A stretch of DNA of 49,929 nucleotides, from assembly GCA_934141615.1 (NCBI GenBank), contig CAKPCM010000002.1, positions 1-49,929 of the forward strand, written 5' to 3'. The notes beneath the pieces were generated by a model. The model had not been told where the DNA came from. It searched no databases and saw nothing but the letters and a program-made list of their open reading frames with translations. The stretch's first letter is position 1, and each line of letters begins with the position of its first letter. This document shows positions 34,599 through 37,904 of the stretch, in pieces. This DNA comes from an uncultured Bacilli bacterium (GTDB lineage Bacteria > Bacillota_I > Bacilli_A > RF39 > UBA660). The translations under genes and the position numbers were made by a program.

Positions 34599-34626
34599 TT
34601 GACGGGGGGGGGGTATATGATATTAT
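34599..34626 (+). promoter_or_regulatory. Candidate promoter of the atypical sigma operon, with poly-G in the spacer
   Basis: TTGACG (34599-34604), 16-nt spacer (nine further Gs then TATATGA), TGaTATTAT extended -10 (34618-34626). SD AGGAGG sits 8 nt before the ATG at 34669. Confidence 0.5.
34604..34613 (+). repeat. G10 homopolymer tract
   Basis: Counted directly: GAC GGGGGGGGGG TAT. It stands out in a genome this AT-rich. Confidence 0.95.
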
Positions 34627-34668
34627 AAACATAGAAAATTTTATAAATTTCACATAGGAGGAATTATT

Positions 34669-36864
34669 ATGAATGATACTCAGTTAATTGATATGATAAA
34701 CAAAAATGTAGAAAACGAAAACGGTAAAAAAAGTATTTCTTATGAAAAACTTGATGATGTTTTCTTAACCGATCTATCAGAAGATGATATTAATAAATTA
34801 TATGATATTCTTGAAGAGGAAAATATTGAAATTAAATCTGATAATTTAGATAATGATAATGTTTATTATGATATAGATAAAGATGCTCCTATGTTAGATG
34901 GCGTTAAGAATTATTTAAGGTTAATAGGGCAATATCCGTTGTTAACTGCTGAAGAGGAGGTATATTTAGCAGAGCAAATTAAACTTGGAAGCAAAGAAGC
35001 ACGTGATAAATTAATAAATTCTAACCTTAGATTGGTTGTATCAATAGCAAAAAAATATAATACAACAATCATGACAATGGATGATCGAATTCAAGAAGGT
35101 AATTTAGGACTTGCAAAAGCAGTTGAAAAATTTGATCCAACTAAGGGTTATAAATTTTCTACATATGCGACTTGGTGGATAAGGCAAGCTATAACAAGAT
35201 CGATCGCAGATAAAGAAAAATTAATTAGATTGCCGGTTCACTATACAGAAGAATTAAGAAAGGTTCAAAAGTTTATTAAAGAATACGAACACAAAAACAA
35301 CGTTTATCCTACAAAAAATGAAATAGCAAAAGGATTAGATATGAGTACCAAAAAAGTAGAAGATATATTAAAAAATTCTCTTGAGGTAAGTTCATTAAAT
35401 AAACCCGTTGGTGAAGATGAGGATTCAGCATTAGAGGATTTTATATCAGACGATTCCTTACCAATAGAAGGATTGACAGAAGATAAGTTTCTAGGAAAAG
35501 ATATAGAAAAAATGCTTAAAGATGTAGCTAATTATGGAAACAAAAATGAAAACACAAAAATAGCAAAAGATGAGATAATAGAAAATTTAGAATTAAAAAA
35601 GAAAAGTGAATTAGAGTATCTATTTGGTTATAAGGGCTTAATAACAGATGTTTATGGTTATGGTTTTTCTAAAAAAACAAAAGAAAAATATAATTATATA
35701 AATTTTATACCATCAGAAGAAAATAAGATTATATTTAATAATGAAAAGAAAGAGGCATATGAGTTATATTCATTAAAGAAACTTCTTTCTTTTGAGGGAT
35801 TAGTAACAGATGTTTATGGTTATCACTTATCAGAATCATTTAAAAATCAGTATCCATATGTAAAGTTTTATGATGGAGATATAAAAAAAGTTATGGTAGA
35901 TCATTATAGGAAAAATGAGATTATTCTTGAATCAAGAATAAATAAAACTATGACCTTACAAGAATTAGGAATTATGTTCGGACTTACAAGAGAAAGAATA
36001 AGACAGTTAAATAGTAAAATGATAGATAGATTAAAAAGAAATATATTATATGGTAAGACCTCAATAGAAAAGGGAATTTATGAAAAAGAAAAATTAAGGC
36101 ATGAGGTAATCAAAGCCACTGACGAAATTAAAGATTTTGTAAATTTATATGGTACTGGCTTGACTCTTTACGAAGTAGATTGTGCTTTTGAATTAGATAA
36201 AAGATATGAAACATTAAATAACATAATCAAATCTATATATGGAAAAATTCAGATAATAAAAGATGAATGTATTAAAATTTCAGGTAGTAAAGAAGTTACA
36301 AAAGAAGAATTACTTGCATCATTAGAAAAAATAAAGGAAAATTTAAAATTAGAAAAGAAAAAGCAAGAAGCAATTGTTAAAGAAAAAAAATTAACTGAAA
36401 GACACACTCAAAAATATGAAGAATTAGATGCAAAAGAAAAAGAATGCGTAAAAATGATATCTTCAATTGATAAAAAAATATTAAATATTTTAATTAGTAA
36501 TGCAGAAGCTTTATCTAATGATTCAAATATAAATATTAATAAATTTATTAATAATATTTATATGCCTGTTGGTACTATATTTGAGGGTATTAATTTAAAG
36601 AAAACACCGTATAAAGATATATTATTAAGTCTATCCTCTAGTAATATAGTTCTATTAGAGGAAGTTAGGGCTAAAACAATGTATATGAGTGAAAAGAAAG
36701 ACATTAAATTTTTAGAATCTATCAATGATGAGTCTCAATCTGATATAAAAAAATGTTTTGTTCACAAAGTAGTAGATGAAGTAAAACGAAAGGGATATTC
36801 TATACAAGAATATATTGATTTAAAACAATATATTAATTTGGAAGAAGAAAATAAAATTAAATAA
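34669..36864 (+). CDS. Atypical 731-aa sigma-70 family (RpoD/group 1-2-like) sigma factor with internal insertion and long C-terminal extension
   Basis: Region 1.2 [23 protein letters not shown]. Region 2 [12 protein letters not shown]...[53 protein letters not shown]. Region 3 present. Region 4.2 [29 protein letters not shown] at aa ~429-457. About 130 aa are inserted at aa ~285-415 and ~270 aa follow region 4.2. Confidence 0.85.
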   Translation: [731 protein letters not shown]

Positions 36865-36875
36865 TGGAGGCAAAA

Positions 36876-37904
36876 ATGAAAGAAAATATAAGTGAAATAG
36901 CACAATATGTTTATGATAATCTATCTCACGGCGATTTTTCAATGAATGAATTGAATGAGATTTTAGAAAAGGATAATATTATATTAAATAATAAACAGTT
37001 AGGGAGGTTAATTTCTGAGTTAAGAAAGTATGGGTTAACCCTTGATGATACATTAGAAATTTATGATAAAGATGATCATACTAATAGTCACATTTCTTAT
37101 GATAATGCAGAATATGGTGAAAATTCAAACTATGTACAATCTTTATCAGAAGATGAATTACAATTAAGTGGTGCTGTTAAAAAATCAATTCCAGAAAATT
37201 TTGTTAGTTCGTTGAGTATTAAAGAGGCTATAACTGACAAAAAAATAGATAAATTTATTAAGTTTATGGAAATTCAACCAGTAGAACTTGCTAAAAAGGT
37301 AAAGAAAGAAATTTTGCAAGAAGTAAATGTTAATGCAGATAAAAAAATAGAGTTATCAAAATGTAGCGAATTTATGAAAAAATGTGTGGATAAATATTTT
37401 GCAAAAATTAATGTTAAAAATAATGTTATACCAAGAATTAAGAAAATACTTAAAAGTAGAGGAATAGAAAATAATATAGGAATAGAAGATTATGTGACAA
37501 GAAAGTTTAATGATAATGAATCATTATTGTTATCATTTAATTCTTATGATGATTTTTATAAAAAACAAGTAGAAGAATTATTAATAGAAGGTTATTTAAC
37601 ATATTTAAATTATTTATATTCACTAGCAAATGTAAAAATGCACGATGTTAAAGTAAATGATATGTTAGATAATTTACTTAAAGTTAAAGAATCTGATAAA
37701 GAAGAAATGCAGAAATTTAATAATGAACATCCTATTTTGGATGATATTGAAACTCAAGTGAAAGTTCAAGATGCTAATAATGCTCGTGCACAAGCTTCAA
37801 TTAACGCAGCTATTGAAGAATTAGGACCTAATGCGTCTAGTGAAGAAATAAGAAAAAGAAGTTTGGAAATATTAAATGATACTACACCAAGTAAATCTAA
37901 ATAA
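36876..37904 (+). CDS. Hypothetical soluble protein co-transcribed with the atypical sigma factor
   Basis: The ATG at 36876 lies 5 nt after GGAGG (36866-36870). An alternative ATG at 36864 overlaps the sigma stop (TAATG). No TM segment and no recognised family. Confidence 0.6.
   Translation: MKENISEIAQYVYDNLSHGDFSMNELNEILEKDNIILNNKQLGRLISELRKYGLTLDDTLEIYDKDDHTNSHISYDNAEYGENSNYVQSLSEDELQLSGAVKKSIPENFVSSLSIKEAITDKKIDKFIKFMEIQPVELAKKVKKEILQEVNVNADKKIELSKCSEFMKKCVDKYFAKINVKNNVIPRIKKILKSRGIENNIGIEDYVTRKFNDNESLLLSFNSYDDFYKKQVEELLIEGYLTYLNYLYSLANVKMHDVKVNDMLDNLLKVKESDKEEMQKFNNEHPILDDIETQVKVQDANNARAQASINAAIEELGPNASSEEIRKRSLEILNDTTPSKSK

Follow-up and report, generated by a model that had tools for sequence, protein, structure and literature searches.

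Few bacterial proteins are as conserved and as immobile as primary-type sigma factors, and the group 2 sigma factors related to them, such as RpoS, the cyanobacterial SigB-E and HrdA/C/D of Streptomyces, are normally species-wide genes and not swappable alleles of a hotspot. Here we describe a 731-amino-acid (aa) sigma-70 family protein of primary type that behaves like a surface antigen or a defence gene. Its open reading frame (ORF) is found at positions 34669-36864, according to the ORF list, of a 49,929-nucleotide (nt) stretch of DNA (contig CAKPCM010000002.1 of assembly GCA_934141615.1, positions 1 to 49,929 of the forward strand; hereafter the window) from an uncultured Bacilli bacterium of the order RF39. 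It is followed by a 342-aa orphan gene (36876-37904), referred to as the partner gene, and both lie between the terminator of eno and the promoter of secG. We propose that this cassette probably carries an accessory, strain-variable sigma factor in a promoter-equipped slot between eno and secG and not the housekeeping sigma factor of its host.

When compared with SigA/RpoD of Firmicutes (i.e., SigA of Bacillus subtilis, Protein Data Bank (PDB) entry 7ckq, chain F), the window sigma factor possesses the same order of regions (1.1-like, 1.2, 2, 3 and 4), is 43-56% identical over regions 1.2 to 3 and contains identical residues for contacting the -10, extended -10 and -35 promoter elements. It differs from SigA/RpoD in that it is twice as long, with an insertion of ~128 aa before region 4.1 and a C-terminal domain of 269 aa, that the conserved IADQARTIRIPVHM motif is altered, that its gene is located away from dnaG and that it appears dispensable and varies among strains. 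The group 2 sigma factors resemble it in being non-essential and paralogue-like and in having primary-type promoter determinants, and the RpoS and SigB models match it strongly at the domain level, yet it remains below the cut-off of every specific model. To the best of our knowledge, group 2 sigma factors carry no domains past region 4.2 and no insertion where regions 3.2 and 4.1 join, and they have not been described in Firmicutes/RF39. The best-supported assignment of the window sigma factor is group-2-like, as suggested by its primary-type domains and promoter determinants and by a dispensability that is read from its pattern of presence and absence.

MzaA of the MZA defence system likewise combines sigma-70 domains with a large size (~700 aa) and a role outside housekeeping. 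The window sigma factor scores 216.6 against the MzaA model (NF041931/PADLOC PDLC02203), whose cut-off is 800, and is matched in its sigma part only, which is found at model positions 473-655 of 726 in MzaA. No Mza genes are found beside the sigma gene, whose sole neighbour, the orphan partner gene, has no PADLOC match. Sigma factors of the ECF41 and ECF42 types, members of the extracytoplasmic function (ECF) group, share with it a C-terminal extension past region 4.2 that likely modulates activity (PMC3426412). In ECF sigma factors, regions 1.2 and 3 are missing and the extensions are of known families, whereas the window sigma factor contains all group 1 regions and an orphan extension. An ECF sigma factor with a C-terminal extension was rejected as an identification, because regions 1.2 and 3 are present and the ECF superfamily model matches only partially.

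Architecture of the long sigma factor

Scanning with Pfam hidden Markov models identified Sigma70_r1_2 at aa 77-107, Sigma70_r2 at aa 115-183, Sigma70_r3 at aa 194-263 and Sigma70_r4 at aa 419-456, each above its gathering score (PF00140, 41 bits; PF04542, 71 bits; PF04539, 59 bits; PF04545, 32 bits). The nearest solved structure is that of B. subtilis SigA (7ckq_F, 371 aa), which matches from query residue 8 to region 3.2 and, in a second match, over region 4.2. Because the SigA alignment begins at query residue 8, region 1.1 may be covered: the N-terminus is aligned with SigA from its residue 14 onward and with the RpoD model NF006666 from its position 12, and Pfam Sigma70_r1_1 gives no match at E <=1. 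The DNA-contacting residues of regions 2.4 (WWIRQAITR) and 4.2 (TRERIRQ) are invariant in an alignment of nine long forms and three canonical sigma factors. The scores against the RpoD equivalog models are all below the cut-offs (238.9 versus 572 for NF006666, 218 versus 354 for TIGR02393 and 228 versus 555 for NF004208). The protein is a complete sigma-70 factor that descended from a primary-type (SigA-like) sigma factor, and the alignments indicate that its core and its DNA-contacting determinants have been kept constant.

The insertion (aa ~288-415), which was delimited by alignment with canonical sigma factors, separates the linker of region 3.2 from helix 4.1. It is an internal duplication consisting of ~44-aa tandem repeats (aa 318-361 and 372-415) that are 36% identical (BLASTP, E = 7e-11); the distant homologues P0059 and P0060 contain one repeat copy only. 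The AlphaFold2 (AF2) model of aa 285-731 is confident, with a mean predicted local distance difference test (pLDDT) score of 85.8, and displays two small alpha/beta repeat units (pLDDT ~85-89), the region 4 helix-turn-helix, long helices and small alpha/beta modules in that order. When this model was searched against the PDB with Foldseek, region 4 alone was matched (48 aa, root-mean-square deviation (rmsd) 2.0 Å) and nothing was found for the insertion or the C-terminal domain; matches of these two to JetABC, F-BAR and coiled-coil proteins were rejected, with E above 0.4 and rmsd above 20 Å. No relative of the C-terminal domain was found in a profile search of PDB sequences, from which matches to nsp8 and GGA were rejected as coiled-coil noise, and when 1.84 billion representative proteins were searched by HMMER, with the C-terminal domain alone as the query, no homologue was found beyond its own sigma family. 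The insertion and the C-terminal domain belong to no family in Pfam, NCBIfam, PHROGs or PADLOC, and neither matches phage or plasmid records by tblastn. All three extra parts, i.e., insertion, C-terminal domain and partner, are orphans, whose homologues, as far as sequence similarity reveals them, are confined to a small RF39 group (i.e., Candidatus Aphodocola-like). The first-pass annotation, which had been made from the letters of this DNA alone, described a 731-aa sigma factor with regions 1.2, 2, 3 and 4, an insertion of ~130 aa before region 4 and ~270 aa past region 4.2, and considered the extra domains unassignable. The ORF list, the Pfam scan and the alignment agree with this description, and the family and fold searches, in which neither the two extra domains nor the partner could be placed in a characterized family, agree with the last point. 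The strong divergence of the cassette alleles in a near-identical background and the G tract of the promoter, which are the most informative features of the locus, do not figure in that annotation.

Some homologues are longer still. P0007 (L017, 2077-4704) is an 875-aa sigma factor with an extra ~70-aa repeat-like insert past region 3.2 and an additional C-terminal tail of ~85 aa, while P0059 (L008, 10001-12307) is a 768-aa sigma factor with an additional tail. The sigma architecture therefore appears to be still under remodelling.

Occupancy of the eno-secG slot and divergence of its alleles

About 60 clusters of long-form sigma factors with the full architecture were found, ranging from 720 to 875 aa in length and from 99% to 33% in identity. 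None of them is named, and their sources are human-gut and similar metagenomes; a profile search of genome contigs with the C-terminal domain recovered one locus of a metagenome-assembled genome (MAG) only. In every carrier examined, the sigma gene is located between eno and secG and not beside dnaG. A MAG named Candidatus Aphodocola sp. encodes an RNase R with 86% identity to that of the window, and Candidatus Aphodocola corresponds to GTDB CAG-594 of the family CAG-433, order RF39 (PMC8035907). Cassette-bearing contigs reach 1.154 Mb, and the genome is therefore small, probably ~1.15 Mb.

Among close relatives, and even inside one species, the sigma gene is present, absent or replaced. The site is empty in L011 (Candidatus Aphodocola sp.), L013, L014 and L015, where eno is followed by secG after ~70 bp and where RNase R is 81-86% identical to that of the window. 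The slot of L012 (7296-9632) is occupied by an unrelated gene whose 778-aa product has internal repeats of ~75 aa and is matched by neither Pfam nor PADLOC. L050 is conspecific with the carrier L016 (98.5 and 98.8% nt identity in eno and rnr, respectively), and in its slot (reverse strand) an unrelated 318-aa ORF of no family replaces both sigma and partner genes behind the same G10 promoter. In a tree of the flanking proteins, sigma carriers and non-carriers are interleaved, and the distribution is patchy. No direct repeats, target-site duplications or att repeats are found at the slot junctions, and there is no integrase nearby. It had been suggested in the first-pass annotation that the sigma gene follows the eno terminator with a promoter and a Shine-Dalgarno (SD) sequence of its own, and that the pair was inserted into a conserved eno-secG-rnr-smpB block. 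Terminator and promoter scans and the SD sequence read in the DNA confirm the former, and relatives with eno directly before secG support the latter. The occurrence of the pair between eno and secG in relatives, for which a survey had been proposed, is not universal: four species have an empty site, one species has the 778-aa gene and one conspecific strain has the 318-aa gene.

The alleles of the cassette vary greatly in an otherwise nearly identical background. The window and L004 share 97% amino acid identity in FusA, 99% in Tuf, 91% in Eno, 97% in RNase R and 96% in SmpB versus 47% in the sigma factor, and the nonsynonymous divergence (dN) is 0.47 for the sigma gene versus 0.017 for rnr, i.e., ~27 times higher. 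The flanks of the window, L001, L016 and L017 are 97-100% identical, while the sigma factors of L001, L016 and L017 are 84, 72 and 66% identical, and their partners 90, 75 and 44% identical, to those of the window, respectively. In a sliding window, nt identity is 95-99% in eno, falls abruptly just past the eno terminator, ranges from 50 to 90% over the sigma and partner genes and returns to 95-100% at the partner stop codon. Synonymous divergence (dS) ranges from 0.25 to 1.2 in the cassette and from 0.00 to 0.20 in the flanks, so that the former is up to 5-10 times the latter. The dN/dS ratio is 0.2-0.45 across all sigma segments, and no 50-codon window with dN/dS >=1, which would indicate positive selection, was found. 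By these ratios, the cassette alleles appear to be old and under purifying selection, with no recent burst. Identity in region 2 is 71-94% among alleles, and L017 is a mosaic, with 87-94% identity in its N-terminal half and 43-70% from region 3 through the C-terminal domain. Inside the clade of 738-aa sigma factors, strain-level hypervariability was considered and rejected, as its ~50 clusters are 93-99.9% identical. These sequence comparisons show the cassette as an island with sharp borders, made up of old and highly diverged alleles under purifying selection in a near-identical background, a pattern that fits exchange of alleles by homologous recombination in the conserved flanks.

The partner gene most likely starts at the ATG at 36876 (MKENISEI...), 12 nt past the sigma stop codon. 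Its homologues, which are 329-344 aa long except for the most distant one (P0132, 367 aa), are aligned from the methionine of MKENISEI, and gene callers elsewhere choose the same start. A 340-aa protein translationally coupled to and dedicated to the sigma factor had been predicted previously. The tight linkage of 12 nt holds, while an overlap of stop and start codons is not needed for a 342-aa product from 36876. The partner is present in the subclade of the window, to which all of its 13 homologue clusters belong; it is an add-on of that subclade and not a defining component, since L004/L007, L008 and L010 carry the sigma gene without it. In L010, a 105-aa membrane ORF with two predicted transmembrane segments (2842-3159) follows the long sigma gene where the partner would be. 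No family of Pfam, NCBIfam, PHROGs or PADLOC includes the partner, PDB searches by sequence and by fold revealed no relative of it, and tblastn gave no match to it in phage records. Homology of the partner to the sigma factor or its C-terminal tails was rejected; the hhalign probability is 0.7%, and BLASTP without composition correction gave only scattered and inconsistent low-complexity alignments. P0133, a 209-aa protein of a 1340-bp contig, joins the first ~150 partner residues to a C-terminus of ribosome-recycling factor (PF01765) and is probably a chimeric assembly rather than a real fusion.

Poly-G promoters and other features of the window

The promoter of the cassette contains a homopolymer of ten G between its -35 and -10 elements (Table 1), and one G run of this class (>=7) is observed in the window, whose GC content is 30%, versus 0.23 expected by chance. 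The promoter is kept across divergent alleles, and the G tract persists even in L016, in which the promoter DNA around it has diverged. According to the assembly consensus of 12 assemblies, the tract at the slot is 10 nt long in nine and 9 nt long in three. Both lengths occur inside one allele type, i.e., 10 nt in L002 and 9 nt in L003 for the P0005 type, and 10 nt in L016/L020 and 9 nt in L040/L059 for the P0006 type. A second upstream promoter (TTTACA...TATAAT, 34566-34591) was rejected, for its spacer is 14 nt long and the promoter scan does not call it.

When related metagenome contigs were scanned for this pattern, the promoter (CTTGAC, G-run, TATATGRTATTATAAAC) was also found 5' of two families of N-terminally anchored proteins. 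The first comprises BspA-like surface proteins of 689-851 aa with DUF285/leucine-rich repeats (L019, L029, L034, L041, L045 and L057), and the second comprises proteins of 224-700 aa that have no Pfam match and start with MEKERRTKALVVVVLL...AFAALSTTLNINGTA (L023, L024, L026, L027, L032, L035, L036, L043, L044, L046, L048 and L064). The G-runs at these sister loci vary from 4 to 10 nt between assemblies, e.g., G6, G7, G8 or G9 after ACCC, and some are interrupted; the spacers are about 15-19 nt long. At least three such poly-G promoters are found in one sample of ~100x coverage. The poly-G promoters look like a genome-wide contingency set in this RF39 group, and from the assembly consensus we infer that their variation is a signature of slipped-strand switching. 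Because the G tract differs in length between assemblies and the same type of promoter precedes surface-protein genes, phase variation is suggested, and the cassette can probably be switched on and off in this way.

Homopolymers located between -35 and -10 elements that differ in length by single units are known from phase-variable promoters of Neisseria, Haemophilus and Campylobacter and from vlp of Mycoplasma, to which the cassette promoter is alike, with switching in the present case only predicted. Phasevarions use DNA methyltransferases, and the flagellar SigD switch of C. difficile uses a DNA inversion. A global regulator under a homopolymer switch would yield a phase-variable regulon, and we know of no primary-like sigma-70 factor that has been described under a homopolymer switch in a promoter spacer.

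Table 1. Coordinates of the signals, genes and protein segments of the eno-secG slot in the window.
Feature	Position	Strand	Basis and details
eno intrinsic terminator, left slot boundary	34514..34543	+	Terminator scan; strain identity falls just 3'; same sequence precedes secG in empty sites
Cassette promoter	34599..34626	+	-35 TTGACG 34599-34604, 16-nt spacer, TG 34618-34619, -10 TATTAT 34621-34626; 10/12 matches plus TG
G10 homopolymer in spacer, candidate slipped-strand phase-variation tract	34604..34613	+	Sole G run >=7 in the 50-kb window
SD AGGAGG of sigma gene	34656..34661	+	Sequence reading
Long sigma-70 family gene	34669..36864	+	731 aa plus stop; ORF, Pfam r1.2/r2/r3/r4; homologue clusters
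Region 1.1-like N-terminal segment and acidic linker (aa 1-76)	34669..34896	+	SigA and NF006666 alignment; Pfam r1_1 without match
Regions 1.2, 2.1-2.4 and 3.0-3.2 (aa 77-287)	34897..35529	+	Pfam; W169 W170 I171 R172 Q173 I175 T176 R177 invariant with canonical SigA
Lineage-specific insertion (aa ~288-415)	35530..35913	+	Repeats at 35620-35751 (aa 318-361) and 35782-35913 (aa 372-415); alignment, BLASTP, AF2
Region 4, 4.1-4.2 helix-turn-helix (aa 416-462)	35914..36054	+	Pfam r4; T440 R441 E442 R443 I444 R445 Q446 invariant; Foldseek rmsd 2.0 Å over 48 aa
Orphan C-terminal domain (aa 463-731), 269 aa	36055..36861	+	AF2 pLDDT 86-95; dN/dS 0.24; no PDB match
Partner gene	36876..37904	+	342 aa plus stop; SD GGAGG 36867-36871; alternative upstream ATG 36864; 13 homologue clusters; dN/dS 0.18-0.42
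secG promoter with TG, right slot boundary	37912..37940	+	Promoter scan; kept in empty and occupied sites; strain identity back to 95-100%

Other features of the window include a gene for tmRNA (157 bits, 43389-43752) after the smpB and NAGPA genes. Beyond it, to ~45000, the window contains ORFs without family at 43849-44214 and 44483-44995, and the relatives contain genes for resolvase/recombinase, Prim-Pol or Mob_Pre (L004, 18680-19387; L011, 19194-22136; L014, 12750-13454; L015, 12043-13998; L016, 17214-18080). The region beside ssrA is probably a second variable and integration-prone site. Three ORFs at conserved positions amid assignable housekeeping genes belong to no Pfam family; they encode 132 aa after rpoC (9964-10362), 146 aa between argS and prfA (17953-18393) and 438 aa between mntP and fba (22527-23843). 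An L10 leader (69 bits, 726-860) 5' of rplJ and an L31-Firmicutes leader (37 bits, 27152-27183) 5' of rpmE are ordinary features. RF39 is generally seen as a reduced, Mollicutes-like lineage. A SpoIIR homologue (PF09551, E = 2e-39) is encoded at 21380-21910, which suggests that the sigma-E activation pathway of sporulation is at least partly retained.

Proposed function and alternative explanations

Some relatives and one conspecific strain (L050) have no sigma gene at the slot, and in L050 the slot promoter serves other cargo. A separate primary sigma factor is therefore expected in these genomes, and from the pattern of presence and absence a canonical dnaG-linked sigA can be predicted. The best matches among canonical sigma factors (P0061-P0065 and P0079) are from other, non-AT-rich organisms. 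Judged from its conserved determinants, the accessory sigma factor would bind core RNA polymerase, read ordinary promoters of the TTGACA/TG-n-TATAAT type and compete with the real SigA in the manner of group 2 sigma factors. The insertion, which is beside the contact of region 4 with the beta-flap, and the C-terminal domain would alter the regulation or recruitment of the holoenzyme, and the co-transcribed partner, where present, would be a cognate binding protein (i.e., an anti-sigma factor or a co-factor). Changes in spacer length by slipped-strand mispairing would switch expression, making the cassette a contingency locus that reprograms transcription in a subpopulation, and strains would exchange alleles by homologous recombination through the conserved flanks. 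A more specific version, which we offer tentatively and regard as rather doubtful, is that a primary-type sigma factor serves as a phase-variable and allele-swappable "plug-in" with orphan modules at region 4/beta-flap and a co-diversifying partner, and functions as a sigma-based phasevarion or in protection from takeover by phages.

Several points weigh against an accessory and switchable sigma factor with a cognate partner. In the ~10 kb covered around known genes, no canonical dnaG-sigA gene appeared; the term accessory is derived from presence and absence at the eno-secG locus, and sigma-less strains may hold a relocated copy. The one-base difference between G9 and G10 comes from consensus assemblies and may be an artefact of assembly or sequencing. 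The partner and the C-terminal domain diverge in parallel, for which physical linkage alone, without interaction, could account. Confidence in the AF2 model of the partner is low (pLDDT 62); the model depicts a small helical domain at the N-terminus that is joined to a helical body by an acidic and disordered linker. The similarity of the N-terminal domain to a fold like that of sigma region 1.1, which was found by Foldseek on this model (probability 0.41, E = 2.3), is a lead only.

An unlikely alternative is a conflict system, i.e., a sigma-based defence against phages or mobile elements, or a back-up sigma factor resistant to hijacking, whose diversity would result from an arms race and whose phase variation would limit its cost. 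As in defence hotspots, the cargo is found in a variable hotspot between core genes without mobility genes; the alleles are old and swapped, the surfaces that do not contact DNA diverge while the contacts to DNA and core are fixed, and the poly-G promoter is common to surface-protein genes. MzaA provides a match at the domain level, but PADLOC models are matched by the generic sigma domain alone, and in MzaA (216 versus the cut-off of 800) the extension is N-terminal. The cassette is also without a nuclease, an ATPase or another effector, its dN/dS is never above 1 and no phage homologues were found. Considerably less probable is an origin of the cassette from a prophage, a plasmid or an integrative element with a sigma factor of its own, of which it would be a moron or a remnant. 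RpoD-like sigma factors are known from phages and plasmids, the distribution is patchy and the GC content of the cassette is 25% versus 29-34% for the flanking genes; however, low GC is also seen in other weakly expressed genes of the window, and in ~10 loci the slot contains neither an integrase nor att-like direct repeats nor other genes of mobile elements. In addition, the insertion and the C-terminal domain match no phage or plasmid, the partner matches no phage, the sigma core is no nearer to phage/plasmid sigma factors (54% or less) than to bacterial SigA, and the family is known from one chromosomal site only. Finally, a sole, lineage-specific housekeeping sigma factor, whose gene left the dnaG operon for the eno-secG site and gained extra domains, would agree with the region 1.1-like N-terminus, the best matches to primary sigma factors, the canonical promoter-recognition residues, the small genome of ~1.15 Mb, the synteny kept in every carrier and the absence of a second RpoD of the lineage among the matches listed, but is highly improbable, given four related species with an empty site and one with unrelated cargo, a conspecific strain in which this promoter precedes another gene (viability without the long form being suggested by L050 and by the species with empty sites), scores far below the cut-off of all RpoD equivalog models (239 versus 572) and an identity of 47% for the sigma factor versus 97% for RNase R, which is incompatible with the constraint on a primary sigma factor.

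An accessory sigma factor in the eno-secG slot would place two orphan modules at the meeting point of sigma with the beta-flap and the RNA exit channel, and a plug-in contingency sigma factor, if true, would be a new class of sigma use and architecture. If confirmed, it would offer new modules acting on RNA polymerase, together with a natural set of diverged alleles for studying them, and would mean that in host-associated, genome-reduced bacteria such as RF39 the global transcription machinery itself can be a contingency locus.

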